Shown piece after piece: positions 2,619 through 56,883 of a DNA stretch of 58,340 nucleotides; position 1 is the first letter of the stretch; each line of letters begins with the position of its first letter. This stretch comes from Patescibacteria group bacterium (GTDB lineage Bacteria; Patescibacteriota; Patescibacteriia; SG8-24). Position numbers and translations under genes: made by a program. The notes under the pieces were generated by a model. It ran no database searches. It saw nothing but the letters and a program-made list of their open reading frames with translations, and was not told where the DNA came from. The stretch covers positions 1-58,340 of the forward strand of contig JAYEJB010000071.1 in NCBI GenBank assembly GCA_034716415.1, written 5' to 3'.

Positions 2619-3716
2619 CTAGTCCTTCTTCACCGTTTCGGGCGGGAAGAAGATGTTCTTGACCAGCGCGCGACGATCACCGTAGATCGGTCCGAGCACG
2701 GCTGTCTTCAACAGCCAACGCCGCTTCTCGTCGGTGACAGCCAGGTCGATGCGCTTCACGTCACCATCACAGACATACTTTGGAATCGCGCCGCAATCCG
2801 GGAAAAGTTCCATCAACCGATCGCCGGGAGTGACTCCGCTACCGCGGAGCCCGGGTGTCAAGTCGATGAATGACTTCTCAAACACGACGTGTCCCACGCC
2901 CCGACTGACTCTGGCCCTGGCATAGGTGATGGTGGTCATGTCGAGCACGGCCCGCCGATAGGCCCCAATGAACCTTACGACAGCTACCTCTGGCGCATGC
3001 ATGCAGAACTCGGCCAACTGACCGAACTGCGTCGTCGTCAGCAGACAGGCACGGTGCTTGTAGTTCCCGGGGTCGGTGAAGATCCTCTCCGGGAACCTCT
3101 CGGACTCGGCCGCCTTCTTCCAGAAGCTGTCCATGACACCTTCGGAAAGCTTGGTCGCGAACAGGATGCCTCGCAACACGCGGGTCGAAATCTTAGGCAT
3201 GACGCCTTCGATCCCGTTGCCCATGTCCTCGAACCATTCGACAAACATTCCGGCACAGCCGGACGCGGTCCGGTTCAGGGCGCGAGCGAAATGTGCCACA
3301 TCCTTGCCGCGCACACTCTCAATATGATCACGTACGGACCACAACGCACAGGCTGTCAGGATGACCGAGCGGACCTCTCGCGGTACGCCGTAGAGCATCC
3401 TCGGATCGGGCACACCCTCATCTGTCGGATACGCGTGCCGCTCCTCGGACTCCCAGCCATCAGGCCGCTTATCCAACGGAACATACTCACGCGTCAGGCA
3501 ACTGCACAGTATGCGTGACCCATACCTGTATCCGAGGTTCCGGCGTTCCATGATTAGCGCGCAGAATGCCTGAACCGCACCGAAAGCATCCTCGTAAACC
3601 TCGTCGAACTTTTCCTGGTCCCACTTGTCTCGAATCGTGCGAACTCCTGCCCGGATCGCATTGGTCAGCTTGAGCTTCAGCTCATAATCTTGCTGATCCT
3701 CAAATCGATCTGACAT
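2619..3716 (-). CDS. Hypothetical protein (~365 aa)
   Basis: Long ORF; start chosen at MSDRF after GGAGGAGAGAGGA; no family recognised. Confidence 0.75.
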   Translation of the reverse strand: MSDRFEDQQDYELKLKLTNAIRAGVRTIRDKWDQEKFDEVYEDAFGAVQAFCALIMERRNLGYRYGSRILCSCLTREYVPLDKRPDGWESEERHAYPTDEGVPDPRMLYGVPREVRSVILTACALWSVRDHIESVRGKDVAHFARALNRTASGCAGMFVEWFEDMGNGIEGVMPKISTRVLRGILFATKLSEGVMDSFWKKAAESERFPERIFTDPGNYKHRACLLTTTQFGQLAEFCMHAPEVAVVRFIGAYRRAVLDMTTITYARARVSRGVGHVVFEKSFIDLTPGLRGSGVTPGDRLMELFPDCGAIPKYVCDGDVKRIDLAVTDEKRRWLLKTAVLGPIYGDRRALVKNIFFPPETVKKD

Positions 3717-3860
3717 TCTCCTCTCCTCCTCCGTGTTTTCCCCCAAAACGTGAAATGAACGATAGATTGACATTATGCACATTCAGCGGATATGGCAAGG
3801 GTCGAGGACGACCATTGCTTGCCGAGAGGCAATATGTTATTCTGCCCTTTCAGAAGGCTT

Positions 3861-5576
3861 ATGTCAAGCATCAAGACGAAAACCGAAATCGCCGAAGTCA
3901 TGGTCAGAGAGGCCATAGCGCGCCACGTCACCGAGAGAGACGTTTTTTTTCGTGTGGTGCAGGATGTCGCGAGGAGTCATTGCGTACAGATGCCGCCCGT
4001 ACGGAAACTCCTGGCCGCATACCGCGCCGTCATCCGCGAGAATCCGAAGCTGGCCGACACGGCGATCGAAACGTTCCTGACCAAATCGAGGGTGCGATCG
4101 CTATCCGGCGTCGCGGTGGTGACAGTGCTGACCAAGCCGTATCCCTGTCCGGGCAAGTGCGTCTATTGCCCGGACGACCGCTCGATGCCGAAGAGCTACT
4201 TACCGAACGAACCGGCCGCGATGCGCGCTGCCGCGCACAAGTTCGATCCGTTCGGGCAGGTGACACAACGCTTGCGGGCCTTGACCGCAAACGGCCACCC
4301 GGCCGACAAGATAGAACTGATCGTGAAAGGCGGTACTTGGTCGGCTTACCCTCGGAAGTATCAACAGGAATTCATCAAAGACTGTTTCGATGCCTGCAAT
4401 TCGTTCGGTGGACGGAAATCGACATCAGACGATCTGGCAGGCGCGCATAAGAAGAATGAAAGCGCGCGATATCGCGTCATCGGACTGACGCTCGAGACAC
4501 GTCCCGACCGCATCACACCGCAAGAGATAGTCCAATTACGGGAACTCGGCTGCACACGCATCGAGATGGGCGTGCAGTCGGTCGATGACGCCATCCTCAA
4601 GACGTGCCGTAGGGGGCACGACAGCGCCGCCGTGGTGAAAGCGACGCGACTCCTGAAGGACGCCGGTTACAAATGCGACTACCACATGATGCCGCAGCTA
4701 CCCGGCGCGTCGCCGAAATCCGACGAACGACAACTGAAGCGCATCTTCGAAGACCCTGATTATCGTCCGGACATGCTCAAGATCTACCCGTGCACGGTGC
4801 TGAAAAAATCACCGCTACACCGCTGGTGGAAGGACGGACGCTACAAGCCATATCCCAATTCACGACTCAAAGAGGTCATCATCGCCGCCAAACAGGCCGT
4901 ACCGCGCTACTGCCGTATCAGCCGTATCATCCGTGACATTCCGTCGGATTCCATCTGCGCCGGAAATCCGGTGACAAGCCTGCGGCAGGTGATACAACGA
5001 GAGATGAAAGAACGTGGTCTGTCCTGTGACTGCCTGCGTTGCCGGGAGATCGGCCGCAAACTTCAAGAAAATCCTAACCTCGCTCACTCCCCCACTCTGA
5101 CATTTGACGACACTTATGAAGCTTCGGGTGGCGAAGAGCACTTCTTGAGTATTGAAGACCCGGGTAGGCAGGCTGTTTTTGCCTTCTGTCGATTAAGATT
5201 GCCGGCAACTGTTTCATGCCTCGAACAATCAACGACGGCTTCACTCACTCCCCCATCCCCGGTTACGGGGCAAAACGCGGGAAAACGGGGCAAAACGGGA
5301 CAAGACGAACTTAACGTGAACCACCCCTCCCCATCCACGGCCTTTCTCCGCGAACTCCACACTTACGGTCATCTCGTGCCGATCGACAAAAAGAATCCCG
5401 ACGCCGCTCAGCACAAAGGTTACGGCAAACGATTGATGGCTGAAGCCGAACGCATCACCCACAAAGCCGGCTTCCGCAAGATGGCGGTCATCAGCGGTAT
5501 CGGTGTGCGTGCCTACTACCGTAAACTCGGTTATCGGTTGCGGGATACGTATATGGTTAAAACGCTACGGGAGTAA
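3861..5576 (+). CDS. elp3: Elp3-family radical SAM/GNAT tRNA wobble-uridine modification enzyme
   Basis: Motifs SLSGVAVV, CPGKCVYCP, GGTW, TLETRPD, EMGVQS, HMMPQLPG, KIYPC, CDCLRCRE, RELHTYG, QHKGYG, ISGIGVRAYYRKLGY. Confidence 0.95.
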   Translation: MSSIKTKTEIAEVMVREAIARHVTERDVFFRVVQDVARSHCVQMPPVRKLLAAYRAVIRENPKLADTAIETFLTKSRVRSLSGVAVVTVLTKPYPCPGKCVYCPDDRSMPKSYLPNEPAAMRAAAHKFDPFGQVTQRLRALTANGHPADKIELIVKGGTWSAYPRKYQQEFIKDCFDACNSFGGRKSTSDDLAGAHKKNESARYRVIGLTLETRPDRITPQEIVQLRELGCTRIEMGVQSVDDAILKTCRRGHDSAAVVKATRLLKDAGYKCDYHMMPQLPGASPKSDERQLKRIFEDPDYRPDMLKIYPCTVLKKSPLHRWWKDGRYKPYPNSRLKEVIIAAKQAVPRYCRISRIIRDIPSDSICAGNPVTSLRQVIQREMKERGLSCDCLRCREIGRKLQENPNLAHSPTLTFDDTYEASGGEEHFLSIEDPGRQAVFAFCRLRLPATVSCLEQSTTASLTPPSPVTGQNAGKRGKTGQDELNVNHPSPSTAFLRELHTYGHLVPIDKKNPDAAQHKGYGKRLMAEAERITHKAGFRKMAVISGIGVRAYYRKLGYRLRDTYMVKTLRE

Positions 5577-5703
5577 CGGAGAATGGTGACGGGGCAAGAT
5601 GGGGCAAACGTGGAAAAACGGATTAAGATAATTCCGTCCTGCCCCGTTTGCCCCAACACCCCTCGACTGCTAGCGTGAAAACGAGTCCCAAAGGAGGGCC
5701 GGT

Positions 5704-5988
5704 GTGGCGTATTACGTCATAAACGAAACGACCCTCCCGCTGAGGGTCATAGCATGGCGGGTTAAAGGCGAACCCGCCATTAAGCTCTTACTGGCAGTCA
5801 CGACCAACAAGGCCCCATACGCGATGATCGATATCACGCTCCGGAAGAACGTGCATCAAAAAGCACGCCTCCCTGGCATCCACAAAATGGTCAAGGTCGA
5901 TGTCGTAAACAGGGCCAGGGTGACGACCAAGCTGGTCACAAACAAGAAAGGAGTCAGGTTCCTGTACATCAAAAGCATCCTCAACTAG
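5704..5988 (+). CDS. Hypothetical protein (94 aa, basic, beta-rich)
   Basis: GTG start after AAAGGAGG; co-oriented with the next small ORF. Confidence 0.6.
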   Translation: MAYYVINETTLPLRVIAWRVKGEPAIKLLLAVTTNKAPYAMIDITLRKNVHQKARLPGIHKMVKVDVVNRARVTTKLVTNKKGVRFLYIKSILN

Positions 5989-6002
5989 AAAGGAAGTGAC
6001 CT

Positions 6003-6302: not shown

Positions 6303-6363
6303 AGTCCGCATGTGTATCGCGGGCTTTTTTCATCTATGTATCCGTGCTAAAATCGCCTTATCT

Positions 6364-7638
6364 ATGATGAAACATCTCAAACAATCCGATCCCGAGGTGG
6401 CGTCGTCCATCGAAGCCGAACTCGCGCGCCAGCGCAGCGGCCTGGAGATGATCGCCTCGGAGAACATCGTCTCCGTCCCAGTGCTCGAGGCTTTGGGCTC
6501 GGTGCTCACCAATAAGTACTCGGAGGGCTATCCGGGCAAGCGTTACTACGGCGGCAACGAGTTCATCGACGTCGTGGAGACGCTCGCCATCGAGCGCGCC
6601 AAGAAGCTGTATGGTGCGGAGCACGCCAACGTCCAGCCGCACTGCGGATCGCAGGCCAACATGGCGGCGTATTTCGCGCTCGCTAACCCCGGCGACGGAA
6701 TCATGGCGCTCGACCTCGCGCACGGCGGACATCTGACGCACGGCAGTAAGGTCAACTTCAGCGGGAAACTGTATCGCATCATCCCCTACGGCGTGAACCG
6801 CGAGACCGAGGCGCTGGACATGGATGAGGTACGAGAGATCGCACTCCGGGAAAAACCGAGAGTGATCGTCGCCGGTTACACCGCCTATCCGCGGGAGATC
6901 GATTTCGAGACGTTCGGAAAGATCGCTCGCGAAGCAGGCGCGTATCTCATGGTGGACATGGCGCACATCGCCGGACTGGTCGCCGCGGGGATGCATCCCG
7001 ATCCGGTTCCGCATGCCGACGTGATCACGACCACGACGCACAAGACATTGCGCGGACCCAGAGGCGGGATGATCCTTTGCCGCACGGAGGACCGGCTGCG
7101 TCCGGACAGCAAGAAGAACCTGGCGCGACGCGTCGATTCGGCGGTGTTCCCGGGTACGCAGGGCGGACCGCTCGAACACGTCATCGCGGCCAAGGCGGTG
7201 TCGTTCAACGAAGCGATGCGGTCGGACTTCAAGGAATATCAGAAGCAGGTCGTCGCGAACGCCCAGGCGCTTTCCGCGGCGTTGACCGAAGAAGGACTGC
7301 GCATCGTGAGCGGCGGGACCGACAACCATCTGGTGCTCGTCGACCTGACGCCGTTCGGGGTATTCGGCAGGGATGCCGAGACAATCCTCGACACGGTGGG
7401 CATCCACACCAACAAGAACATGATTCCGTTCGACGAGAGAAAGCCGGCTGATCCTTCAGGTTTGCGGCTCGGCACGCCGGCCCTGACGACGCGCGGCATG
7501 AAGGAAGAAAACATGAATACGGTCGCCACGCTCATTGCCGGAGTGCTGAAAGACGAATCGGAGGAGAATCGCGACACCATCGAAAAACGCGTGCGTGAAC
7601 TCGCGGCAGAACACCCCATCTATCCTGAACTCGTTTAG
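6364..7638 (+). CDS. glyA: Serine hydroxymethyltransferase
   Basis: Motifs [59 protein letters not shown]. Confidence 0.98.
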
Positions 7639-8478
7639 ATGCCGGAGACTAACATCATCGACGGCCGCAAGGTCGCCGGGAGGATCGAGAAAGAAACGCG
7701 GCGCGAGATCGCCGCGCTCGGTTTCGAGCCCGGTCTCGGCGTTATCCTGGTCGGTGACGACCCGGCTTCGCACCTGTACGTGAAGCTGAAACAGAAAGCG
7801 TGCGAACGCGTCGGTATCCGATTCGAGCTGTCGCCCTTCGCTGCCGACGCGACCGAAGAAAACATCCTCGATAATATCCGGAACCTGAACAAGCGCGACG
7901 ACATCCACGCGATCCTGGTGCAACTTCCTCTTCCGAAAAATATGGACACCGACCGCGTCATCCGCGCCATGGATCCGGCGAAAGACGTCGACGGTTTTCA
8001 TCCGGACAACATCAAGAGATTGGACGATACCGACGGCGATGGTTTCCCGGGACTGACCGAGGGTGTCATCGACCTTATCCACGAGACCGGCGTGGACCTG
8101 AACATGAAGCGCGTGGTCATTGCGGCCAACAGCCCGACCTTTGTCTTGCCATTAGAGATGCGTCTACGCCAACTCCAGGCACTGCCGAAATTCGTGCACG
8201 GCGACGCGCCCGACATCACCTCGCAGTTCCACGACGCGGACATCATCATCACCGCACTCGGCCGACCAGGCCTCGTGACCGAAGACGACATCAAGGAAGG
8301 AGCGATTCTGATAGACGTCGGCACCACGAAAGTCGGCAAGAAGACCATCGGTGACGTCGATACTGAGTCGGTGAGGGGGAAAGCTTCGTGGCTGACACCA
8401 GTACCCGGCGGCGTCGGACCCGTGACCGTCGCCATGTTACTGAAGAACGTTGTAAGACTATCAAAAGACCGCGCTTAG
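7639..8478 (+). CDS. folD: Methylenetetrahydrofolate dehydrogenase/cyclohydrolase
   Basis: Motifs IIDGRKVA, VGDDPASHLYV, ILVQLPLP, KDVDGFHP, IDVG, TPVPGGVGPVT; abuts glyA. Confidence 0.96.
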   Translation: MPETNIIDGRKVAGRIEKETRREIAALGFEPGLGVILVGDDPASHLYVKLKQKACERVGIRFELSPFAADATEENILDNIRNLNKRDDIHAILVQLPLPKNMDTDRVIRAMDPAKDVDGFHPDNIKRLDDTDGDGFPGLTEGVIDLIHETGVDLNMKRVVIAANSPTFVLPLEMRLRQLQALPKFVHGDAPDITSQFHDADIIITALGRPGLVTEDDIKEGAILIDVGTTKVGKKTIGDVDTESVRGKASWLTPVPGGVGPVTVAMLLKNVVRLSKDRA

Positions 8479-9736: not shown

Positions 9737-10891
9737 CTAAAACATCTCTTTCAACGTAGAAAACATCTCGTAGAGAGCTCCCAATGACAGGACCACGATT
9801 GTGACATTGGCCCAGAGCAGAGGAACACCAAGCTTCTTCTCCTTAAGCGATCCTTTCTTGGTTACGGCGATATACAGCAATGCCACGATGACCGCCGTGA
9901 TACCGCCGAACACCGCTCCCGAGAATCCGACGATTGTGATGAAATTCTTGGCCCCGAGCATGACGACCGCGAGCGGCACCCCCACGGCCAGCAACCAGGC
10001 CGGCACGATATGCATCTTATAGTCATACTCGAACGTGGAACGCAGATTCAGTCCGATGACGAAGTATGACGTCGCTACCGCCAGGAAGCCGAATACCGCG
10101 GCGAACGCGGAGACCCCTCCGCCCAATACCATCTTCAGTCCGCTGACTGCGTCGGTCGTGGTCGCCTCACCGGTCACTCCGTACACCATCAACCCGAAGA
10201 GCGTCGTCAACACGATAGCGATCAGCATGCCGATGATGATCGATTTCCTGAAGCCCTTGTGCTTCCCCTTCATGACGTCCTCCATCTCCGGGATGGCGCT
10301 GATGCCCGAGAGCGAGAACAGGATGACGCCGTACGGCAGGAACAGGTCGCCGTTCACGAACGGCATGAAGTTATCCAGACGCACGAACGGTGCCGACATG
10401 CCGACGATGACCAGAAGAGCGATCCCCAAAAGCACGGTCGACACAAAATCGATCTTCTCGACGAAACCCAGCCCGAAATAGATGACCGCGGCGCCGAGTA
10501 TGCCCCACGCGATCTGATAATGAAAAATCTCCCCGCCGATATGCGGTGAAAGCAAGACATGCAGAAACGTCCCGCCCACCAGGATATATGCGATCAGTCC
10601 ACCCCAGAATCCGAGTATGGTCGCGGCGGCCGCGATATGTTTGGCGCGCGGACCGATATATTTGCGCGCCAACCCCACAAGCCTGATCTTCTCTTCGCAG
10701 GCCATCGCCGCCTCGGCATAGAACAGGCTCTGGAGTATCTGGATCGCGCCCAGTACGACGATGAAGACGAGCGCCAGCCCGACGCCGACCTGGCTCATGG
10801 CGTACGGCACGCCGAAAATGCCGACACCGACGACGGTCCCGACCAAAGCCGCTGTCGCGAGCACGAACCTCTTGCGGTCTAGGGAAATCAT
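9737..10891 (-). CDS. Amino acid permease (aromatic amino acid/HAAAP-like)
   Basis: GTVVGVGIFGVPY, ~11 hydrophobic segments, YGVILFSL; start trimmed to MISLD. Confidence 0.88.
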   Translation of the reverse strand: MISLDRKRFVLATAALVGTVVGVGIFGVPYAMSQVGVGLALVFIVVLGAIQILQSLFYAEAAMACEEKIRLVGLARKYIGPRAKHIAAAATILGFWGGLIAYILVGGTFLHVLLSPHIGGEIFHYQIAWGILGAAVIYFGLGFVEKIDFVSTVLLGIALLVIVGMSAPFVRLDNFMPFVNGDLFLPYGVILFSLSGISAIPEMEDVMKGKHKGFRKSIIIGMLIAIVLTTLFGLMVYGVTGEATTTDAVSGLKMVLGGGVSAFAAVFGFLAVATSYFVIGLNLRSTFEYDYKMHIVPAWLLAVGVPLAVVMLGAKNFITIVGFSGAVFGGITAVIVALLYIAVTKKGSLKEKKLGVPLLWANVTIVVLSLGALYEMFSTLKEMF

Positions 10892-10959
10892 ATATACATT
10901 ATACCATGAAACGGTTCGGCTTTTCCGCGCCGTACGCCCTTTTATCTCGGAGGAGAGTT

Positions 10960-11577
10960 TTGACTTCCACAACTCCCGAAAAGGAACTGGCCCCAAAGAA
11001 GCCAGTCATCATAACCAACGGCTTTTCCCCCATCCCGATGTCCGTGGAACACCTCGCCCTCGTCTACAGGGCGGCCGGTTTCCAGGTCAGGATCATCGAG
11101 TATCGACTCGAGGACATGATGGACATCAAGCGATACGCCAAGCATATCGCCAGGACCGCCCGCGAACTGCACGAATCGACAGGTCACAAGGCCCACATCG
11201 TCGGCATCAGCATGGGTGGTGTAGCCGCACTCTTCGGCATCAAGTTCTATGCTGCTGCACCTGTTGTCGATACGTTGGTGGCCATGGGCTCTCCGTTCAA
11301 AGGGACACCAGCCACGTTCCTGGGTGAATGGACACTGCTGTTTCACAAGACGGGGCGGCAACTGGCGTTCAGGAGCGAATTCATCCAGAAACTTCACGAG
11401 GATCCCCTGCCACCCGGACCGCGCTACGTGTCTGTGAGCGGACATCTGGATTTCGTCTGCCCTCCCTATGTTTCGCAGCTCGATGGAACTGACAACCGTT
11501 TTCTGCTGTTCCAGCACTTTCACCTCATACTGTCACCCCTGCTGCACCAGCAGATCGCGAACATCCTGCTCGAATGA
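10960..11577 (+). CDS. Small alpha/beta hydrolase (lipase/esterase-like)
   Basis: Nucleophile elbow GISMGG, MGSPFKGT, GHLDFVCP, C-terminal His; TTG start after GGAGGAG. Confidence 0.85.
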   Translation: MTSTTPEKELAPKKPVIITNGFSPIPMSVEHLALVYRAAGFQVRIIEYRLEDMMDIKRYAKHIARTARELHESTGHKAHIVGISMGGVAALFGIKFYAAAPVVDTLVAMGSPFKGTPATFLGEWTLLFHKTGRQLAFRSEFIQKLHEDPLPPGPRYVSVSGHLDFVCPPYVSQLDGTDNRFLLFQHFHLILSPLLHQQIANILLE

Positions 11578-15981: not shown

Positions 15982-16114
15982 CCGAAGATAAAGAACCTTC
16001 TTTCAGTGAATCAGCTGTTACTGCCAAGGTCAACGAAGACCCTGGACCGAAGCGCACAAAAAGGTTAAAAATGAAATACGACCTCCGATAGAGGTCCGAT
16101 GGAAGGAGGCCGAA

Positions 16115-16753
16115 GTGAAAGCTTGCTTACCGGACGAGCAGCAACCTCTTTTTGCCAAGATGGTGCGCTCGACCGTTCAAATCGAAAGTCGTGACATGGA
16201 GAAGATCGGCGCGGGCGTGCTGATCAGCCCCACTGGTCTGATCCTGACCGCAGATCACGTCGTGGGTGACGTCAACAGATTCGACATCCGCCCTTGCCGA
16301 CTGGAGAAGTGGCGGATCAAGCTCCTCAAAAGGATGTTCGATGTAGAAGTCGTCTACCGTGACGAGAGGGCGGACATCGCCGTACTGCTGATCAAGGAGG
16401 GTCTACAAGGAGCCGTTCACGCGGAGATAGATTACGGACCCACCAAAGCAGGTGCCGGAGTCTACCGCGTGGGTACGGACAGGATACCGATGGCGTCAGG
16501 GCATGTCTACACCTTCTGGAACGACATGAGTGTACGTCATCTGGCCATCAGTATGACTGCGGAAAACGGCTGTAGCGGCGGGCCTATCTTCAACGATGAC
16601 CTGAAGCTCGTCGGAATCGCAGTCAGGGCGACTGACGATCTCAAACTTCCGACTACATGCTATGCCGTCCAGACAAGGACCATCCATAGCCGCATCCTGT
16701 TCCGCAGGGTGGTCAAGCAGCATCTTCCTGAAGACCTGCGTAAACCACGCTAG
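16115..16753 (+). CDS. Trypsin-like (S1) serine protease, no signal peptide or PDZ domain
   Basis: GAGVLI, LTADHVV (His), ADIAVL (Asp), GCSGGP (Ser); GTG start after AAGGAGG. Confidence 0.88.
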   Translation: MKACLPDEQQPLFAKMVRSTVQIESRDMEKIGAGVLISPTGLILTADHVVGDVNRFDIRPCRLEKWRIKLLKRMFDVEVVYRDERADIAVLLIKEGLQGAVHAEIDYGPTKAGAGVYRVGTDRIPMASGHVYTFWNDMSVRHLAISMTAENGCSGGPIFNDDLKLVGIAVRATDDLKLPTTCYAVQTRTIHSRILFRRVVKQHLPEDLRKPR

Positions 16754-16800
16754 GACTATACAAAAACCCGGCTCTCGCCGGGCTTTTTCTTTCCTTTAGA

Positions 16801-18918: not shown

Positions 18919-19027
18919 AACACCCTGCGACCAAGCGGTCACAGGGTGAAAGTATCGTTATTGTTTCTGGGCTTTGGAGAGAACGCGAGGACCGGAGTCC
19001 TCGAGACGACCATTGCGGCCGCTTCTC

Positions 19028-21280
19028 CTATTCGCTGAGCAGGTCGGCGATGGACTTACGTCCAACGGGCGCGACGCGGCGCGCCGGACGAGGCCGAGGC
19101 TTCTCCTGCCGCCGGGGCGACTTGGAAGCAGGGCGAGGCTGAGACGAACCGTTCGAATCGACCGGCTCCACCAGGAAGACCCCGGCGCGCATCCTTGCCT
19201 TCGTCTCACGCACCAGTGTCGGTTGCCCTCTGACCGGATCCGGATACCTGTTCGACCAGACGAACCTGTATCCCCTATCCATCGCATACCACTCGGGTTT
19301 CCCGCCTTGGTTTTCACCGAGATAGAACGCGAGTGTGTGCTCCTGCAGGTCCGGATCTTTTGAACGATCCGATCGACGACCAGTAGCGGTACCGACAGCC
19401 CGAGCGGACTGTCGTCCATGGACGTCTTCACGACCCCGCTGACGAGGAGTGAAGGGGCTGTCCTTCGACGGTCCACTGAGGAAGGTCTGCAACACGATCT
19501 CCCTGATCTCATCCTTGGACAGGTTGGCCCTATAGGTATAGACCTCGTCCTGTCTGCTGGACAACCACGCAGTGCCGAACGCCGTCCTCCAGAATGGCCA
19601 GAACATGATCTGGACATCCTCGGTCGTGCCGTCAGGCATGTCGAGCGTCACGTAGTTCTCATCAGTCGAACAAAGCTGACTGATCTGACCCTCTGTGGCG
19701 TTCCTGAGGGACCAGCCATAGCCTCGATTCATGAGATCACGCTTCCGCAACTCGTAAACGGTCTCCACCGGCACCATGAGCCCTTTCCGGCCCGAAAGGA
19801 TGAAAAGACCGTCGTCGCGGACATGAAGGACGAAGTCGGCCTTCTGGTCCCTGATGGCCTCACCTTCGTCGTCCGGCGCGAACCGAGCGACCTTCGATGC
19901 GGCATCGCTTTCAGACTCGACGAAGCATAGCGTGAGATTGTTCGGCCGTCGCTCCCTTTCCGTCTTCTTGCGCCGCATGACCTGCCGAAGCCCTCCGATG
20001 AGGGTCTGTGAATAGTCACCTCCCGGATCATCCTCTTCCTCGATTCGAGTGAGAACGAACTCGAGATCCTCGTCATTGAGCACATCCGGCAGAATCCGAG
20101 CTCGCTTCAAATCAGTCATGAACTGACCCGGAGAGTGAGGAAGTTTCCCTCCCCGCTCTTCGATGTAGCTGCTCACACCCTTCAGAACCTTGGCCACATC
20201 CTTGTCCGGGATGACACGAGGCTTCCAGGTCCCCATCGCGACCGCCGGCTTCTCGATGTTGAGAATCTTGGTCCTCTCAGGGTCTCGATAGTCCCTGTCT
20301 CCCTGATCCCAATCCAGCTGGTTGTGAAGGAATGCCGCTTCCGCGCGGGACCGAAGCAGCTTCGATTCTATCGAATCCGGTCCGTACTTGGCCTCAACGG
20401 CGGGCATGAAGCCCATCTGGCGTCCGCTCTCGTCATCATCCTCCACATTCTCCTTGATGAGGACGTGAAACATCATCATCTCCCGCGCGACCCTGTGAGT
20501 ACGGTGAACGTCCTCCACGGCGATCGTCGAGAAGTAATGGTGAATCCCGTCGAGGGCGATAAAAGCGAGCTGGCACACATCTTCCGGATTCCTGTTCTCG
20601 CTCTGCCGGTTGATCGAGACGATGAGCTCGCGGAGTGACCTGATGACGTTCTTCGTCGTCTCGGCATTCTCTCCCAAGTCGACGATAGTGCGCTGCCTGC
20701 CTGGCGTCGTATCCGTGGCGTAGGCGTCGTTATCGCAGATCACGTCACAGATCGCCTGCATCGAGGTGACGAAGTCTTCCAATTCCACCCTCTCCTCATC
20801 GTCCAGGATCTCAAGACGCGTCTTGAGTTCTTCAGGCATGCCTTCGTACGTCGACCCGTAGAAAGTCGAGAGGTAATCGCAGAACCGAGCCAGGGCCGCT
20901 TCGTCGGCCCGGATCACTTTTAGCCCATGATGATCGAACGGCGTCGCGAACCTGAGGTTGTCCATGCCGAGATAGCCCTTCGTCATGAAGTTCCACTCCA
21001 GCACATCCTGCATCGTGATACGCCCGGAGGCGATCTCATCCTGCCAGGGATAAAGCGAGGCCGGCTTGCTGAAATCGAGCGGTGGCGTGAAAATGCGCCT
21101 CCACTCGTCGCTGATCGAACAGGCTTTCCGCACGACCGCCTTACGGTCGATCATCCACATGCCGGTCAGACAGTCCAGGTCTGGACCGTTGTGTCCGACG
21201 ACAGTGCGAATGTGGTATCCGGCCGTCACGAGGTCTAGAGCCTTATCAAACTTTTCATCAGATACGGTAGCATCGTTCAT
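19028..21280 (-). CDS. 750-aa protein with N-terminal DHH-superfamily-like motifs
   Basis: VVGHNGPDLDCL (HxxPDxD) and PFDHHG; the rest is unrecognised; basic tail. Confidence 0.65.
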   Translation of the reverse strand: MNDATVSDEKFDKALDLVTAGYHIRTVVGHNGPDLDCLTGMWMIDRKAVVRKACSISDEWRRIFTPPLDFSKPASLYPWQDEIASGRITMQDVLEWNFMTKGYLGMDNLRFATPFDHHGLKVIRADEAALARFCDYLSTFYGSTYEGMPEELKTRLEILDDEERVELEDFVTSMQAICDVICDNDAYATDTTPGRQRTIVDLGENAETTKNVIRSLRELIVSINRQSENRNPEDVCQLAFIALDGIHHYFSTIAVEDVHRTHRVAREMMMFHVLIKENVEDDDESGRQMGFMPAVEAKYGPDSIESKLLRSRAEAAFLHNQLDWDQGDRDYRDPERTKILNIEKPAVAMGTWKPRVIPDKDVAKVLKGVSSYIEERGGKLPHSPGQFMTDLKRARILPDVLNDEDLEFVLTRIEEEDDPGGDYSQTLIGGLRQVMRRKKTERERRPNNLTLCFVESESDAASKVARFAPDDEGEAIRDQKADFVLHVRDDGLFILSGRKGLMVPVETVYELRKRDLMNRGYGWSLRNATEGQISQLCSTDENYVTLDMPDGTTEDVQIMFWPFWRTAFGTAWLSSRQDEVYTYRANLSKDEIREIVLQTFLSGPSKDSPFTPRQRGREDVHGRQSARAVGTATGRRSDRSKDPDLQEHTLAFYLGENQGGKPEWYAMDRGYRFVWSNRYPDPVRGQPTLVRETKARMRAGVFLVEPVDSNGSSQPRPASKSPRRQEKPRPRPARRVAPVGRKSIADLLSE

Positions 21281-21416
21281 TTCTCTCTCCCGGGCAAAAA
21301 AACGCCCTGTCGGTTTAACCGACTACTGCTCGACCGGTACCGCCGGTCTCGGTTGGCTGCATAGCCCAGTTGTAAGGATCATCATCCCCGACCAACTCGT
21401 CAGTGAATGACATATG

Positions 21417-21445
21417 AATTTAGCATGATTTGGCTTATTTGTCAA
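21417..21445 (-). promoter_or_regulatory. Sigma70-type promoter for the DHH-like gene
   Basis: TTGACA-N17-TAAATT with extended -10 TG. Confidence 0.7.
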
Positions 21446-25486: not shown

Positions 25487-25487
25487 C

Positions 25488-26852: not shown

Positions 26853-26896
26853 CGAATTCGCGCTTTGAAGTAAAAAATGAACCGTTCAGGGTTATC

Positions 26897-33561: not shown

Positions 33562-33705
33562 ACCCCTGACGGGGCTCAAGAGCGTGACTACGGTCGCGCT
33601 TTTTCATTCATCTGCTTCAGACAGATCCGCCGAGCTCTATTTGACAACCTTGACCTGTAACCGACAAGATGATATAGTCTGACATCAGATGAGAGGAGAA
33701 TTCGG

Positions 33706-33879: not shown

Positions 33880-33894
33880 AAAGGAAGGAACAAC

Positions 33895-34026
33895 GTGGAG
33901 ACACTACTTCTGATCGCTGGGGGCGTCATCGTCGCCATCTTCGTCGGAGTGGCAGCCGTGTTCGTCACTCGCCTGGACACCACGAAGGTGAACAGGGCGA
34001 TCAACAAGACGAACAGGTCCAAGTAG
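33895..34026 (+). CDS. Small membrane protein, 43 aa (not in ORF track)
   Basis: GTG start after AAGGAAGG; METLLLIAGGVIVAIFVGVAAVFVTRLDTTKVNRAINKTNRSK. Confidence 0.7.
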   Translation: METLLLIAGGVIVAIFVGVAAVFVTRLDTTKVNRAINKTNRSK

Positions 34027-34112
34027 GACCTTCGGCAGACGACGTAAACGATCGGCGCGGCGCGAAAGCCCGCGCTCTTTTTTTATTGAAGAAGCAATCA
34101 AAAATGTCGATA

Positions 34113-34220
34113 CCCCCAAAGTGCCTGTCACCCTCTGCCCCCAAAGTGCCTGTCACCCTCTGCCCCCAAAGTGCCTGTCACCCTCTGCCCCCAAAGTGCC
34201 TGTCACCCTCTGCCCCCAAA
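34113..34220. repeat. Perfect 25-bp tandem repeat, 4.3 copies
   Basis: Unit CCCCCAAAGTGCCTGTCACCCTCTG. Confidence 0.95.
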
Positions 34221-34323
34221 AGGAGCAGGCATTAACAGGCTGCGGCACGGCGGCATCGGGGTTGACAATAAGGCTAAAATATGCTATCCTGTAGAAAGGT
34301 TCTTTACGGGAAAGGAGGTATCT

Positions 34324-34854
34324 TTGGAGACGGTAGTGCCACTCCTATGGGTGGTGTCGGTCTGTCTCGTGGCGTTCCTGGTCGTCAAAACGGTGACCAT
34401 CGTCCGGAGCGGCAAAAGAGTCTCTTGGGAGAACGAGGTCAGTGCGATAAATTCGGATATCCTCCGATGCGTCGACTCCTCGAACAAGGAGCAGGCAACA
34501 CTGCTTCTACGCCGACTGCGTTTCATGCTCGAAAAGCATGAAGTCGACGTTCCCGGGGTGAACTTGGAGCTGCTGAAGATGTTGGTCGACAACGTTGAGG
34601 CCAAAGCTCCACGTCGGAAGGACACCACCCAACCCAAAAAGGAGCCAGACCCCGCGGAAGTCGATGCTGAAATTGAGTTTGATCTCAATGAACTGACTGA
34701 AGGGTCCAAGCTTGCGGACGTACAACTGCGAAACGACCTGCGTTTGACGCGGGACCGCCTTCGTAAGGCAATGCAGTTGACGCTCGGTTTACGACGCGAA
34801 CAGCTGGACATCCAGTCGGTCATCGAGAGACTTCTCAAACAGCTCGACGAATAG
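34324..34854 (+). CDS. Single-pass membrane protein with C-terminal coiled coil
   Basis: TTG after AAGGAGG; promoter TTGACA(34262)-N17-TATCCT; N-terminal transmembrane helix. Confidence 0.78.
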   Translation: METVVPLLWVVSVCLVAFLVVKTVTIVRSGKRVSWENEVSAINSDILRCVDSSNKEQATLLLRRLRFMLEKHEVDVPGVNLELLKMLVDNVEAKAPRRKDTTQPKKEPDPAEVDAEIEFDLNELTEGSKLADVQLRNDLRLTRDRLRKAMQLTLGLRREQLDIQSVIERLLKQLDE

Positions 34855-37643: not shown

Positions 37644-37647
37644 GTGA

Positions 37648-37695
37648 TTGACTGTTGGAATCGCATATCCTATATTGAAATACCGTACAAGTCAA
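37648..37695. promoter_or_regulatory. Overlapping divergent promoters for uvrA and the orphan at 37726
   Basis: Plus TTGACT-N17-TATATT; minus TTGACT-N17-TAGGAT; the -10 hexamers overlap. Confidence 0.65.
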
Positions 37696-37725
37696 GACAG
37701 ACGCTCTTTCAGAAAGGGGGTTGAG

Positions 37726-38205
37726 ATGGCCGACCTGCATAAGCCCTATGACGCACCCGCGGCCTTCAAGGCCCTGTGGGCTACCGTCGACCAAATGTTC
37801 GCGATCGTCGGGACGATCGACAACAAGGACTTCGATTGGGTGGTGGCTGCCCAGCTCATCAAGGCTTCGCGCGACCGGCTGGCACCGTTCGCCGAGCCTC
37901 ACTTCCCGGGCCTAAGCTATGTAGATCCCGACAAGACCAGCGCCTCGATCGAATGGATCTATGCGACCGCACTGCGCATCGTACGGAAGGCGGCGCCACT
38001 GATTGATGATGTCAAAAGGAACGCTGAGACCGCGAGCCCGACAAAGCTCAGTGAGTACAGGAGACGTCTGCTGAAACAAATCATCCTCGCCACCATCGAC
38101 CTGCATGACCTCACCTATTCTCCGAACATCCGAGACGCGCTTCTTCCTGAACCGCGGTTCAGTCGCGACATGGGACCACCGAATCCATCCGATGACTTGA
38201 ACTGA
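37726..38205 (+). CDS. Hypothetical helical protein (159 aa)
   Basis: ATG after AAGGGGG; terminator CCGCCGC..GCGGCGG-TTTTTT downstream. Confidence 0.7.
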   Translation: MADLHKPYDAPAAFKALWATVDQMFAIVGTIDNKDFDWVVAAQLIKASRDRLAPFAEPHFPGLSYVDPDKTSASIEWIYATALRIVRKAAPLIDDVKRNAETASPTKLSEYRRRLLKQIILATIDLHDLTYSPNIRDALLPEPRFSRDMGPPNPSDDLN

Positions 38206-38273
38206 CCACCCGCCGCCCAGCGGCGGATTTTTTATATGTCATCGCGCCCCACCTTTGGCGGGGTAGTTTTTAC

Positions 38274-40361: not shown

Positions 40362-40546
40362 ATTTCTATGAATACGACAATCGCCTAGAAGTCGGACTTC
40401 TAGGGGGTACATAGACGGTGATAATGTATGCTCCGCAAATTACGTAGAACGCGACACAACGGAACGCTGGTGACGATACAACGGATCAGCACCAGCGTCA
40501 AACCCCAAAAAGAAAAACCCGACATCTGATTGTCGGGTTCGGTGCA

Positions 40547-41089
40547 CTATTCGAAGTGCACGGTGCGTTTCATCTTGCCGACCACTCTGATCGGTGTCTC
40601 CACCAGCCGATCGACCTGGGCCGGATTTGTCCACCCTTCCTTCAGGGCTTTCTCGTTCGTTTCTCGAACGATGTCCTGAGCCTGACGTGTCGAGTATGTC
40701 GTAAACCCGACTATTTCCCCGGCAGGATCATAGATCCCGTCGTCCCGAAGCCGTCGTGCCCGCACGAACCAGCCTTGTTCCGAAAGGTATCTCGGCTCAT
40801 TTGTGTATATCCGCCCGTCATTCGACCAACTGATCTTTCGGTCGGATGGATGCGATTCCTCTACGACGAACTTCGCTTGACCGCGCGAATCATCGCGGCA
40901 ATCGTAATGCTGTTCATTGACCTCGATTGGCACGTCCATGACCCTGATCGGACCCACCGGGGCTTCCAACTCGTCGTTCTTGCCCCTTCTGTAGTATCGC
41001 CACCCGCGAGCGAAAGCCTCACAGACGATGACATCACCGACTTCCGGTCTGAGTGCAGTCCTGACATCCTCCTCGGAAAAAAGTTCCAT
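40547..41089 (-). CDS. Hypothetical protein (~180 aa)
   Basis: ATG after AGGAGG; promoter TTGACC(41146)-N17-TAACTT; terminator AACCCGACA..TGTCGGGTT-TTT downstream. Confidence 0.75.
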   Translation of the reverse strand: MELFSEEDVRTALRPEVGDVIVCEAFARGWRYYRRGKNDELEAPVGPIRVMDVPIEVNEQHYDCRDDSRGQAKFVVEESHPSDRKISWSNDGRIYTNEPRYLSEQGWFVRARRLRDDGIYDPAGEIVGFTTYSTRQAQDIVRETNEKALKEGWTNPAQVDRLVETPIRVVGKMKRTVHFE

Positions 41090-41158
41090 CGGTACCTCCT
41101 GAAACGAACTTAGAATGAAGTTAGCACGCGAATAACCGCAGGTCAATAGAGACACACT

Positions 41159-50296: not shown

Positions 50297-51167
50297 TGGA
50301 GAGATGTTTCCTGAAGAACCCCCCCACCACCTCGGCGAACTCGACCGAGGCCTGTCCGTGATCACCCGTCTCGAAAAACAGGTACTGCGCGTCGGGATTC
50401 TCGGCCAACGACTCCTTGATACGTTCCGCGTTTTCGAATCCGACGAGTTTATCCTCCCTCGAGTGGATCAGCAGGACCGGCTTATCGGTACCACGCACCG
50501 CGCGTACGGGAGACACCTGCTCCAGACTGACACCCAACACCAGACCGGCAATCAGTTCGGAGGCGAAGGTCAGCGGAGTCCCGAGCGGCCCGAGATACTT
50601 GAACACTTCCTGGGTCATCATCTTCAGATCCGCGTAGGACGCCTCCGCGGCCACGGCATCGATCGCGAGACCCGGATCATCCAACCCCATCAGGGCGACA
50701 GCACCGCCCATCGAGATGCCATAGACGCCGATCTTCCGCGTCCCTTTACCCTCCAGATAACGCACAGCCGCAGTCAGATCCTCGGCCTCCTTTACGCCGA
50801 CGGTCGTGTGGGACCCCTCACTCTCCCCGAAATAGCGGAAATCAAGCAATAACAAGTTAAAATCATCGACCAAAAACTTCGTCCTGGCGAGCATGTCACC
50901 CTTATCGGTCGGATAACCGTGCAGGACGATGATGGTGGAATCGGTCGTGTCGCCCTGCTTCGGTATGTACCACCCAGCGAGCTTCACCCTGTCTTCCGTG
51001 ACCAGACTGACGTTCTCGAACCGGAGATCGAAATGGTCGGGATTGACCGAACTGGCCAGCTTTCTCGGCCTGACCGCGCTGAACAAGCCGAGCGTCGTCA
51101 TGAAGACGAGCGGCACGAGAACGACAATCAGCAAGTCAGTAACGGTGCTTCTTTTGAATAGCATCAT
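50289..51167 (-). CDS. Membrane-anchored alpha/beta hydrolase
   Basis: N-terminal transmembrane helix, LHGY, DFR..GES.G, GISMGG, IHSRED, GDH. Confidence 0.9.
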   Translation of the reverse strand: MMLFKRSTVTDLLIVVLVPLVFMTTLGLFSAVRPRKLASSVNPDHFDLRFENVSLVTEDRVKLAGWYIPKQGDTTDSTIIVLHGYPTDKGDMLARTKFLVDDFNLLLLDFRYFGESEGSHTTVGVKEAEDLTAAVRYLEGKGTRKIGVYGISMGGAVALMGLDDPGLAIDAVAAEASYADLKMMTQEVFKYLGPLGTPLTFASELIAGLVLGVSLEQVSPVRAVRGTDKPVLLIHSREDKLVGFENAERIKESLAENPDAQYLFFETGDHGQASVEFAEVVGGFFRKHLSND

Positions 51168-51347
51168 AGCAAGGGAAGGATACCACGCGGACGAGTTCGT
51201 TTCAACGCCGAAATCCGTGGATTTCGCCTTAATAATTGACAGGGGCGGCGTTCTTCGGCAAGATGATAAATCGCTCCATAAAATTCGATTTTTCGCCCGT
51301 CTTCTTGTTCTATTGACGGGATAATCTCAAACGAAAAGGAACGGACT

Positions 51348-54880: not shown

Positions 54881-54955
54881 ATTCGTGTCTGTTCATACCG
54901 ATATTGTAGCACCGACAAGAAAAACCCCGTACCACACAGGGTACGGGGTCGACGA

Positions 54956-56128
54956 TCATGAACGTTTCGGACGGAAGATCCAGAGCAAGGCGGAGATCAG
55001 CACCATCAACGTCCCGTTCACGAACCAGGTGACAGCAATCAGAGTTAGATTCTCCTCGTGTCCGCTACTGAGCAGCCAGACACAGACAAGAATGACAGAA
55101 AAACCCAGACGACTGACGAACGACTGCAAGGAGCCGAACGTGGCCCGGTAACTGCTTTCGACCCGGCGCTGTACATATGTATCAAGCAACGGCCTAAACA
55201 GACCACGTCCGACCTCGTGCATGAAAGCCAGCATCAGCGGAGCGACGATCCCTGAGAAGAGACCGGTAAAAACCATTCCGACGGCAGTCATCATCAAGGC
55301 TATCAACACACCCGTCGACTCACTGGCATTGGTCCAGCCATCACGTCTCGCAAGATAGGCACCGAGCATGCTACCACCGATAATGATCAACCATACGTAC
55401 GACAATCCACTGTGTCCGGTACGGGCAGCGAAGAACGGAGCCCAGTAGTGATTGAACGACAACACCAGCCCCAACGAGCAGGCAACCACCATCGCCCAAA
55501 CCAGACCGTTCCCCTGTTTCAACACAGTGACGCTCTTATGCAGTGCATCGAACTCTGTCACCCGCTCAACAGGTTCACCGTCTCCGTTCATGAAACAGCA
55601 CGTGACCACGATCATCCCGATACCACCGATGACACTCGCCAGAATCGCCGCGCGCAGACTGTGTGCACCGATAAAGGCACCGATTACACCACCGCACAGG
55701 CAGGTCATGGACATGCAAATCGCGCTCGTAGCCAACACCTTGCGCAGACGATGGCTTTCTCCCTGTTTGGAGAGCGCATCTGTCACCCAGGCCAGCTCTG
55801 CTCCGGAAAGAAAGGCGAAAGCTACGCCCATCATGATTTCACACACCAGAGCCGACCATAAACCGTTCGCAAACGCCAGTGCTAAATGACTCAATGTGTA
55901 TACCACCGCACCGATTCGGACTGACCAAGCCCGACCTCTTCCGTCCGCTAACATGCCGGTCGGCAACTCCGCCAACACGATAGTCAGAAAGAAGACCGCG
56001 TTGATCAGCGCCACCTGCGGCAAGGTGACTCCGACACTGGTCAGATACGGCACGTATGCCGTCGACGTCAGACCCATGGCAAAACCGTTCGCTGACATGA
56101 AAAGAACGTAAACCGTTGAAGCCTTCAC
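54956..56128 (-). CDS. MFS transporter
   Basis: ~12 transmembrane helices, ELPTG.LAD..GR motif A, SGA..AW; GTG after AAGGGAGG. Confidence 0.93.
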   Translation of the reverse strand: MKASTVYVLFMSANGFAMGLTSTAYVPYLTSVGVTLPQVALINAVFFLTIVLAELPTGMLADGRGRAWSVRIGAVVYTLSHLALAFANGLWSALVCEIMMGVAFAFLSGAELAWVTDALSKQGESHRLRKVLATSAICMSMTCLCGGVIGAFIGAHSLRAAILASVIGGIGMIVVTCCFMNGDGEPVERVTEFDALHKSVTVLKQGNGLVWAMVVACSLGLVLSFNHYWAPFFAARTGHSGLSYVWLIIIGGSMLGAYLARRDGWTNASESTGVLIALMMTAVGMVFTGLFSGIVAPLMLAFMHEVGRGLFRPLLDTYVQRRVESSYRATFGSLQSFVSRLGFSVILVCVWLLSSGHEENLTLIAVTWFVNGTLMVLISALLWIFRPKRS

Positions 56129-56153
56129 TGCATCCTCCCTTGTTCAGGCCACC

Positions 56154-56176: not shown

Positions 56177-56206
56177 CCAATTTGATGTCAGAGCTACCTT
56201 TTGGGG

Positions 56207-56314
56207 CTATGCATGTGATTCAGACACCATGTGGACCGGGAACGCGAAATCCGTCGGCAGATAACCGACGTCCGACTTCGCGATGAAATTGGTCCACATT
56301 TGATGTCTTTCCAT
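56207..56314 (-). CDS. Putative leader peptide, 35 aa
   Basis: MERHQMWTNFIAKSDVGYLPTDFAFPVHMVSESHA; ATG 8 nt after the -10 box; spans the alternative helices. Confidence 0.55.
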   Translation of the reverse strand: MERHQMWTNFIAKSDVGYLPTDFAFPVHMVSESHA

Positions 56315-56322
56315 ACTTATTG

Positions 56323-56351
56323 ACGCTAGCAGGCCCCGAGCAGGCTGTCAA
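56323..56351 (-). promoter_or_regulatory. Sigma70-type promoter of the leader/MFS unit
   Basis: TTGACA-N17-TAGCGT with extended -10 TG. Confidence 0.7.
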
Positions 56352-56451
56352 CAGTAGCCGGCCGTTCTGTTCCAATGAAGACTCCCCAGGCTGAAGCCCG
56401 CGGTGTTCTGCGGAGGCGAATAAAAAATCCGGCTTAGACCGGATTCTGCTG

Positions 56452-56883
56452 TCACTGGACAGCCTTCCTGTCGCTCGGCAGGATCTTGATCTCGTCGAGC
56501 CAGACCTCGCGGATCGGTGATGTCTTGACGTGGAAGGTCTCACCCCCATGTTCAAACGAGAACTCCAGGCTCATTCCGAGCTGAATGACGGCGCTGAAAA
56601 GCGCATTGCCCCACGGATTAGACGACCCGATCAGGTAGCCTTCCACGCGTGCCTTTTCTTCTACGCCGTCTCCGAGCTTCTCTTCAATGACCCCGCCCAT
56701 CAGGAGTACATCACGCTTACCCTGCTCCAGTATGATGATGACGTACTCCGAGTACCTGGTCTTGACGGTAATCGGAATCAACCCCTCGATATCGCTGATC
56801 TGAATACCTTCATCGCCGGCATACTTATCGATGATAGCTTTCAATTCCACCGGCACCTTTTCTGTCTCTTCTTGATCTGTCAT
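56452..56883 (-). CDS. Hypothetical acidic protein (~143 aa)
   Basis: ATG after GAGGGGTGAGG; beta-rich pattern. Confidence 0.7.
   Translation of the reverse strand: MTDQEETEKVPVELKAIIDKYAGDEGIQISDIEGLIPITVKTRYSEYVIIILEQGKRDVLLMGGVIEEKLGDGVEEKARVEGYLIGSSNPWGNALFSAVIQLGMSLEFSFEHGGETFHVKTSPIREVWLDEIKILPSDRKAVQ

Follow-up and report, generated by a model that had tools for sequence, protein, structure and literature searches.

Two classes of translation start divide conserved and clade-restricted genes on a Patescibacteria contig

Gene content and start sites of the window

We analysed translation start sites, with and without Shine-Dalgarno (SD) sequences, on the 58-kb contig JAYEJB010000071.1 (57% GC; hereafter the window, meaning the whole stretch of 58,340 nucleotides). 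About 57 genes were called from coding statistics and then scanned against Pfam. Together with the window, about 180 kb of loci from relatives (L001-L014) make up the whole analysis; for L008-L014, independent gene calls and precomputed Pfam marks were used. A Pfam family was found for 35 of the 57 window genes and none for the other 22. The genes with a Pfam family are murB, murC, an ELP3-like radical-SAM enzyme, glyA, folD, an amino-acid permease, dnaB, ybaB, recR, rplU, DUF192, a GT4 transferase, a ClpB-like ATPase, rsmH, mraZ, a short uvrC, a Na+/H+ antiporter, uvrA, uvrB, a beta-CASP MBL protein, GH1, a rhodanese, a P-type ATPase, CaCA, DUF5652, LigT, PEBP, hydrolases, a sigma factor, prs, a PRTase, an MFS transporter and a trypsin-like peptidase. 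Rfam and ARAGORN gave no tRNA, rRNA or Rfam match in the window and 11 of the relatives' loci.

The antiporter shares 78-84% identity with proteins of metagenome-assembled genomes labelled 'Patescibacteria group', 'Candidatus Uhrbacteria' and 'Parcubacteria group', and the gene order around it is conserved in these relatives. This identity and the conserved gene order indicate that the contig belongs to an Uhrbacteria/Parcubacteria-like Patescibacterium of the candidate phyla radiation (CPR), an ultra-small bacterium from brine, and not to a member of the Bacteroidia. The sequencing runs that contain the window sequence are brine metagenome DNA runs only, with no RNA run among them.

SD pairing energy was calculated as dG against an assumed 16S rRNA tail, ACCUCCUUA, and an SD was scored as strong at dG <= -9.5 kcal/mol and a spacing of 4-12 nucleotides (nt). 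A GGAGG-type SD lies 3-9 nt upstream of 16 of the 57 starts (28%), which are referred to as SD-led. The remaining 41 starts are SD-less and every one of them is ATG, whereas GTG or TTG is used at six of the 16 SD-led starts. The dG distribution of the starts is bimodal, with nine at or below -11 kcal/mol and 29 near 0, and neither C nor T occurs at positions -10 to -7 of the SD-led starts. Among all 4941 ATG/GTG/TTG triplets in the window, 47 are preceded by a strong SD (about 1%, true starts included). The presence of an SD was tied to gene class: it was found before 13 of the 22 Pfam-less genes and before three of the 35 Pfam genes in the window (Fisher p = 6e-5), and before 17 of 31 Pfam-less and one of 35 Pfam genes in the relatives (p = 2e-6, independent gene calls).

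A first-pass annotation, made from the letters of the window, had proposed that most core genes lack an SD and that most orphan or divergent genes carry one, often with a GTG or TTG start and a promoter and terminator of their own, and the pairing energies divided by gene class bear this out. All 12 starts that it listed as SD-led have a purine SD (dG -7.5 to -12.9 kcal/mol), and its core genes (murC, glyA, dnaB, ybaB, rplU, mraZ, uvrA/B/C, GH1, MBL, CaCA, prs and the antiporter) all have a dG above -5.5. The exceptions it had named also hold, the low-GC gene and the 57-58 kb genes having no SD and ybhB a weak GAGG. One listed start, TTG 27532, does have an SD but abuts it, so that ATG 27526, 6 nt after AAGGAG, fits better and is the likelier start. 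ATG 37726 (AAGGGGGT), ATG 21280 and ATG 56883 were added as SD-led starts.

The association could arise from start choice, if the 5-40 candidate starts per orphan open reading frame (ORF) always yielded an SD-like motif while core starts are fixed by homology. Orphans do have several candidates each, and for six SD-led genes the start is not the first that the ORF offers. However, a given candidate has a strong SD by chance in about 1% of cases, and a best-of-candidates rule applied to Pfam genes produced few and implausibly placed matches. Homolog lengths and independent gene calls agree with the SD-led starts, and the SDs are conserved at orthologous starts. Such an artefact is therefore extremely unlikely. 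The SD-led units of the window are:

2575..3731, minus strand: orph387 unit, 365 amino acids; SD GAGGAGG 3725-3731 within the polypurine tract GGAGGAGGAGAGGAGA (3717-3732), ATG 3716, stop 2619, terminator 2599-2575.
5691..5988, plus strand: orph94, a small gene; SD AAGGAGG 5691-5697, GTG 5704.
10949..11577, plus strand: alpha/beta-hydrolase-like gene, 205 amino acids; SD GGAGG 10949-10953, TTG 10960.
16103..16782, plus strand: trypsin-like peptidase; SD AAGGAGG 16103-16109, GTG 16115, terminator 16767-16782.
18921..21445, minus strand: orph750 unit; promoter TTGACA-17-TAAATT 21445-21417, weak SD GGGAG 21287-21291, ATG 21280, terminator 18948-18921.
26984..27538, minus strand: orph164; SD AAGGAG 27533-27538, ATG 27526, terminator 27002-26984.
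27597..27996, minus strand: orph140; SD GAGGAGG 27990-27996, ATG 27984, terminator 27620-27597.
33033..34854, plus strand: cassette of four SD-led orphans with N-terminal membrane anchors; starts ATG 33049, ATG 33706 (promoter 33650-33678), GTG 33895 (terminator 34059-34076) and TTG 34324 (promoter 34262-34290).
37648..38226, plus strand: orph185 unit; promoter TTGACT-17-TATATT 37648-37676, AAGGGGGT 37714-37721, ATG 37726, terminator 38210-38226.
40515..41146, minus strand: orph202 unit; TTGACC 41146-41141, TAACTT 41123-41118, leader AAGTTCGTTTCAGGAGGTACCG, ATG 41089, terminator 40540-40515.
54923..56140, minus strand: MFS transporter; SD AGGGAGG 56134-56140, GTG 56128, terminator 54950-54923.
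56452..56952, minus strand: orph145 unit; promoter TTGACA-17-TATTCT 56952-56924, GAGGGGT 56888-56894, ATG 56883.

Promoters and terminators of their own were confirmed for most of these units. Promoter-like sites with a score of 10/12 lie 27-49 nt before the starts at 33706, 34324, 37726 and 56883, and a further one lies 136 nt before ATG 21280; these promoters are at 33650, 34262, 37648, 56952 and 21445, respectively. Hairpin-plus-T terminators follow orph387, orph164, orph140, orph43, orph185, orph202, the trypsin-like gene and the MFS gene.

It was also considered whether GGAGG is not an SD at all, the lineage having no anti-SD and the polypurine leader being read by another factor or RNA. 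The anti-SD motif has been detected in only 48% of Parcubacteria (PMC9297842), polypurine tracts such as that of orph387 exceed what SD pairing needs, and the orph202 leader is conserved beyond its SD, all of which would fit. Against this, the motif is exactly complementary to CCUCC, it keeps the canonical distance of 3-9 nt from the start, and it accompanies all six non-AUG starts, as SD-assisted initiation predicts. The published anti-SD loss overlaps the subgroup lacking uL1, to which the Uhrbacteria-type 'Parcubacteria 1' may or may not belong, and the approximately 25-fold enrichment of GGAGG at canonical spacing argues indirectly against membership in the anti-SD-less subgroup. We regard this explanation as very unlikely and take GGAGG to be a true SD, as its canonical sequence and spacing and its link to non-AUG starts argue.

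SD-led families in related genomes

The SD-led genes were followed in the loci of relatives. The orph387 family was found in eight relatives (34-66% identity, 325-377 amino acids against 365 in the window) and the orph202 family in six, of which the five close ones are 63-67% identical and 176-184 amino acids long (180 in the window); these lengths agree with the SD-led starts. In L008-L011, the orph387 homologs stand beside murC in the same slot and with the same polypurine SD, which reads GGAGGAGGA in four genomes. The hydrolase-like homologs (204 amino acids) keep their SD in L009 and L011, and the orph94 homolog in L011 has AGGAGG (dG -12.3). In L013, the orph140 homolog (33% identity) retains GGAGG-ACGCC-ATG and the orph185 homolog (40% identity) lies in the same uvrA/uvrB slot with AAAGGAG. 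Two gene orders of the window are kept in the L008-L014 contexts, namely recR-ybaB-dnaB-hydrolase-like-permease-folD-glyA-two small genes-radical-SAM-orph387-murC-murB and rhodanese-GH1-MBL-orph202-uvrB-orph185-uvrA. Six SD-led families (orph387, hydrolase-like, orph94, orph202, orph185 and orph140) are present in relatives, 33-67% identical, at the same syntenic positions and with the SD retained at orthologous starts, and the conserved genes stay SD-less. In L001-L007 the conserved genes uvrABC, antiporter, mraZ and rsmH likewise have no SD and strong SDs precede non-conserved ORFs; all ten SD-led genes picked in L002-L007 are without a Pfam family. The SD-led genes also diverge faster, with a median identity to the closest relative (L011/L013) of 45% compared to 76% for SD-less genes (p = 0.0015). 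That each family keeps its regime in relatives indicates that the split is maintained by selection and is not a trace of recent transfer.

The first-pass annotation had offered, as one of two explanations, that the orphans come from an SD-using gene pool. As recent horizontal imports from a phage, a plasmid or an SD-using donor, the SD-led genes would carry donor signals, in the manner of morons or genomic islets. They are self-contained units, each with promoter and terminator; some relatives do not have orph164, orph154 or the 32.5-34.9 kb cassette at the corresponding slot (orph164 is not at this slot in L005, and the antiporter-uvrA gap is only about 0.2-1.2 kb in L001, L002, L003 and L005); and a PHROGs search with 10 SD-led orphans gave two matches, both weak. 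GC content at third codon positions (GC3) is also slightly lower in the SD-led genes of the window (0.70 vs 0.75, p = 0.02). However, the sign of this GC3 difference is inconsistent between genomes (SD-led GC3 is higher than that of the core in L011 and equal in L013), and overall GC in the window does not differ significantly (0.564 vs 0.580). The SD-led genes track the GC of their host, with 0.49 in a 46% GC genome, 0.56 in the window and 0.62-0.64 in genomes of 61-62% GC. No integrase or transposase family was found among the window genes scanned against Pfam. The only gene of clearly foreign composition is a Pfam-less gene of 349 amino acids at 8544-9593 (GC 0.45 and GC3 0.47 in a contig of 57% GC), and its start is SD-less and of the leaderless type, with GATAAT 8 nt before TAT-ATG, contrary to the expectation that foreign genes would be the ones with an SD. 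Recent import is thus quite unlikely: the shared slots, the retained SD and the host-matching GC indicate that the SD-led genes, judged from their sequence, are residents. The idea that they form GC-rich islands was rejected as well, as they are not GC-richer than the core in the window.

Several observations concern individual SD-led genes. The leader of orph202 (AAGTTCGTTT[C/G]AGGAGGTA[C/T]CG, then ATGGA) is nearly invariant between the window (41089-41146), L013 (7355-7425) and L014 (1765-1835), and the protein is only 63-67% identical across these three genomes. AAGTTC in this leader is able to pair with codons 2-3 (GAACTT), which would put the SD and the AUG in a loop, and the leader may be a translational control hairpin. 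The MFS start GTG 56128 lies 30 nt past a strong terminator (56178-56158), with no recognisable promoter between them and no convincing gene in the approximately 270 nt upstream of that terminator (region 56128-56451); this region may serve as a leader for read-through or attenuation, or encode a small RNA. The SD-led hydrolase-like gene 10960-11577 has a tandem paralog in the Pfam-less ORF 11574-12293, with which it shares NGF-P-P…G-S-GG motifs. How far the homology extends, together with a terminator-like hairpin at 11583-11601, suggests TTG 11667, after GGAGAAG, as the true start of this ORF. The start of the ELP3-like radical-SAM gene (3792-3836) is probably ATG 3834 and not ATG 3792: L008 has CTG at the first position and a gene call at the second ATG after GCGGAGG, where the window has GAGAGG.

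The orph387 family always lies between this radical-SAM gene and murC (window 2619-3716, L008-L012). Its product of about 360 amino acids is mostly helical with a small beta-sheet, and the AlphaFold2 model is confident (pLDDT 82, pTM 0.83); Foldseek found no fold match in the PDB (best E = 0.06, TM about 0.2). Such a model without a PDB fold match suggests that orph387 is a real, conserved CPR protein to which no function is assigned. The AlphaFold2 model of orph202 is poor (pLDDT 53), and the family profiles of orph387 and orph202 gave no match among PDB sequences.

Context and subsets of the SD-less starts

The first-pass annotation had described an A/T-rich context ending in AT-ATG, and this was found as well: T(-1) occurs at 26 of the 41 SD-less starts (63%), compared to 12% before all ATGs, and A(-2) at 56%. 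T(-1) is the strongest position-specific signal at these starts and is present in 20 of the 31 genes whose start is the first ORF candidate (p = 7e-5). A is enriched at -14 to -11, with A(-13) at 54%; A(-6) occurs at 46% and A(-3), which is not enriched, at 29%. The stretch around the SD-less starts is also weakly folded, with a median minimum free energy (-20 to +20) of -3.2 kcal/mol compared to -7.8 for random ATGs (p = 7e-12); the SD-led starts are intermediate (-5.6).

The other explanation of the first-pass annotation, which pointed to the sequestration of the anti-SD by bS21/bS18/bS6 in Bacteroidia, was that different ribosome states may translate the two gene classes. In such a Bacteroidia-type mechanism the anti-SD would be sequestered on the 30S platform, and only a ribosome sub-population, for example without bS21, would read the SD-led genes. 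The upstream A at -13, -6 and -2 recalls the adenines of Bacteroidia (PMC13000457), and ribosome heterogeneity has a precedent (PMC9976891). Yet the organism is a Patescibacterium, strong SDs stand on 28% of its genes, compared to essentially one gene in Flavobacterium johnsoniae (PMC13000453), and bS21 is reported to be often absent in Parcubacteria (Tsurumaki et al., 2022, PMC9297842). A tblastn search with E. coli bS21 gave chance matches only in the 235 kb examined, an uninformative result. Moreover, the promoters that abut the AUG in part of the SD-less class require no such mechanism. An explanation of this type has a small probability, comparable to that of recent import.

Across the 41 SD-less genes, 18 hexamers resembling a -10 box were found 6-12 nt before the ATG, whereas the 16 SD-led genes had no such hexamer at 5-12 nt. 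They occur before murC, the permease, glyA, uvrC, murB, MBL, CaCA, the hydrolase and ybaB, and a box 6-11 nt upstream is kept in orthologs of murC (5/5), the permease (3/3, as TGNTATAAT 6-8 nt before ATG), uvrC (4/5), glyA (2/3) and murB (2/3). With transcription starting 7-8 nt past the -10 box, the mRNAs of a subset including murC, the permease, glyA, uvrC and murB are probably leaderless or have leaders of at most 5 nt. T(-1)A(+1)T(+2) at these starts fits the Y-R-Y transcription start element (PMC12641261). Representative SD-less starts are:

2530..2544, minus strand: murC, leaderless-type start; TATTAT 2537-2542, 6 nt before ATG 2530; -10 box 6-9 nt before ATG in 5/5 orthologs.
6348..6366, plus strand: glyA; TAAAAT 6348-6353, 10 nt before ATG 6364; predicted leader of about 3 nt.
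7636..7641, plus strand: glyA-folD junction; glyA stop TAG abuts folD ATG 7639; SD-less; candidate for termination-reinitiation.
10891..10906, minus strand: amino-acid permease, leaderless-type start; TGGTATAAT, hexamer 10898-10903, 6 nt before ATG 10891.
26852..26949, minus strand: mraZ, leadered and SD-less; promoter TTGACC-17-TATGAT 26949-26921, 68 nt before ATG 26852.
29987..30027, minus strand: uvrC; promoter TGGACA-17-CATAAT (TG-extended) 30027-29999, 11 nt before ATG 29987; predicted leader of about 4-5 nt.
30857..30927, plus strand: Na+/H+ antiporter; TTGCCT-17-TATCAT 30857-30885, G-poor leader of about 32 nt, TAT then ATG 30925, no SD.
37643..37695, minus strand: uvrA; TTGACT-17-TAGGAT 37695-37667, 23 nt before ATG 37643; short SD-less leader.
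51167..51205, minus strand: alpha/beta hydrolase; promoter TTGAAA-17-TATCCT 51205-51177, 9 nt before ATG 51167.

That all SD-less genes are leaderless was rejected, as uvrA, the rhodanese gene and mraZ have good promoter matches at a distance of 22-68 nt upstream, and the antiporter has a weaker one (9/12) at 39 nt. The leaders of these four genes are G-poor and have no SD. The mraZ orthologs in L005 and L013 are likewise without SD, and T(-1) is present in all six antiporter orthologs aligned. In addition, 12 starts lie at most 12 nt from an upstream stop (folD, DUF192, ftsL-like, GH1, MBL, clpB-like, rsmH, murB, DUF5652, LigT, orph97 and CaCA) and could be served by reinitiation or by an internal promoter. 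These were left out of the leaderless count because a TANNNT box can arise from a TAA stop. The SD-less class is not uniform but combines leaderless, G-poor-leadered and stop-adjacent starts. An explanation of the split by expression level was also rejected, as rplU is SD-less.

Two further features were seen outside the start signals proper. A tandem repeat of 96 bp at 14526-14890 (3.8 copies, 98% identity) has a unit that holds the recR start region (…CAACAATGACATGAGATAA then ATGCGTGATTTTCC…), so that each of the three upstream copies encodes a 31-codon truncated RecR N-terminus with TAA directly before the next ATG, and full recR is read only from the last copy (ATG 14843). The repeat could be genuine or could have arisen in assembly. 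Near-identical terminator-like hairpins (…CTGTTTC-loop-GAAACAG… then GCCTGTTTTT) occur at gene ends on both strands (1-26, 13919-13942, 18856-18892 and 35018-35045), and this family looks like a dispersed REP-like terminator element.

Two initiation regimes and comparison with known systems

The two initiation regimes are real and heritable by gene family. In this respect the proposal of the first-pass annotation stands, since regimes by gene class recur in relatives; its Bacteroidia analogy and a recent import from an SD-using gene pool are not sustained. We consider it probable that the core is made independently of the SD by a ribosome that still reads the SD for a clade-restricted minority of genes. 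The motifs and their statistics, synteny, SD conservation, GC tracking and the difference in evolutionary rate are observed; where transcription starts, that SD and anti-SD pair, that reinitiation occurs and why the split exists are what we infer from the sequence. Most conserved genes would be free of SD interaction, their AUG lying in an A/U-rich, G-poor and weakly folded stretch that ends in U(-1). Some would be expressed from leaderless or near-leaderless mRNAs with a -10 box 6-11 nt before the AUG, where U(-1)A(+1)U(+2) would double as the Y-R-Y element, others through short G-poor leaders without SD, and others by reinitiation at starts 0-12 nt from an upstream stop. The clade-restricted, fast-evolving units would be translated through canonical pairing with the 16S 3' tail, each having a promoter with -35 and -10 elements, an 18-45 nt leader, a GGAGG-type SD of 5-8 nt and an intrinsic terminator, and often starting at GTG or TTG. 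The accessory class possibly keeps the SD for regulated leaders, for weak start codons or as a separately gated regulon.

Several points weigh against these two regimes. The sample is one contig of 58 kb and about 180 kb from relatives, rather than whole genomes. Three Pfam genes are SD-led (trypsin-like, MFS and P-ATPase) and nine Pfam-less genes are SD-less, including the foreign-looking low-GC gene. About one third of the SD-less starts (rplU, prs, rsmH, DUF5652, clpB-like and GH1) lack both a -10 box close by and a leader that can be recognised. All transcription start sites are inferred, as the runs with this sequence are DNA only, and in packed genes the TANNNT box that an upstream TAA can form inflates the leaderless count. 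The callers used on the relatives weigh ribosome-binding-site motifs in their choice of start. The limited detection of the anti-SD in Parcubacteria, given above, counts here too.

The SDs of the window are far stronger than is typical of SD-using bacteria. This strength and the family-by-family conservation of the SD would be explained if the SD-led genes formed a separately switchable translational regulon, in which access to the 16S 3' tail acts as a global valve for the fast-evolving accessory (host-interaction and envelope) proteome. Access could be set by bS21 occupancy, by processing of the tail or by a small RNA that mimics the anti-SD. We regard such a regulon as unlikely, if somewhat less so than the alternatives discussed above.

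In these genomes the start signal predicts whether a gene belongs to the ancient core or to the lineage-specific accessory set, and gene finders with a single model of the ribosome-binding site will misplace starts in CPR genomes. The window adds that the SD-led genes of a GC-rich brine lineage are not GC-richer than the core, that the SD state survives a host GC swing from 46% to 62%, and that the SD-less class is mixed. This raises the question of how expression is divided between housekeeping and fast-evolving functions in ultra-small symbionts that grow slowly. The literature searched contained no account of a split of CPR genes by class into leaderless and SD starts.

The nearest published kind is the 'group C' genome of GeneMarkS-2 (Actinobacteria and Deinococcus-Thermus; PMC6028130), in which leaderless transcription is mixed with SD sites; examples are Deinococcus deserti (PMC4007540) and Mycobacterium (PMC3898074). 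As in group C, a Pribnow box lies 6-10 nt before many starts, a second gene set has a canonical SD, and AUG is obligatory in the SD-less class. Whereas internal and leadered genes use an SD in group C, here folD, rsmH, prs, DUF5652, mraZ, the antiporter and uvrA do not. Moreover, the SD class is set here by gene age and conservation, comprising clade-restricted, fast-evolving and self-contained units, and the lineage is CPR, of which the searched parts of PMC6028130 make no mention.

The SD-independent initiation of Bacteroidia, described for F. johnsoniae (PMC7797042, PMC9976891, PMC13000453, PMC13000457), is similar in that most genes have no SD, starts are A-rich and unstructured, and a small SD-bearing set exists alongside. 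It differs in phylum, in that essentially rpsU alone is SD-led compared to 28% of the genes here, in that many promoters here abut the AUG, and in that the strongest signal here is U(-1) and not A(-3), A(-6), A(-12) and A(-13). Sequestration of the anti-SD is unlikely to be needed here. The SD-led units resemble phage morons and genomic islets in being single genes flanked by their own promoter and terminator between conserved syntenic genes, with some slots variable. Unlike these, they are not in a phage, have no integrase or transposase gene among the window genes scanned against Pfam and have host composition, and many are syntenic and vertically retained. With the anti-SD-reduced Parcubacteria (Tsurumaki et al., 2022, PMC9297842) the lineage shares the superphylum and the tendency to initiate without SD, but here the SD is evidently still used on a quarter of the genes. 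The lineage looks like an intermediate state toward the anti-SD loss reported for other Parcubacteria, in which the dependence of a minority gene class on the anti-SD appears to be the only reason for its retention.

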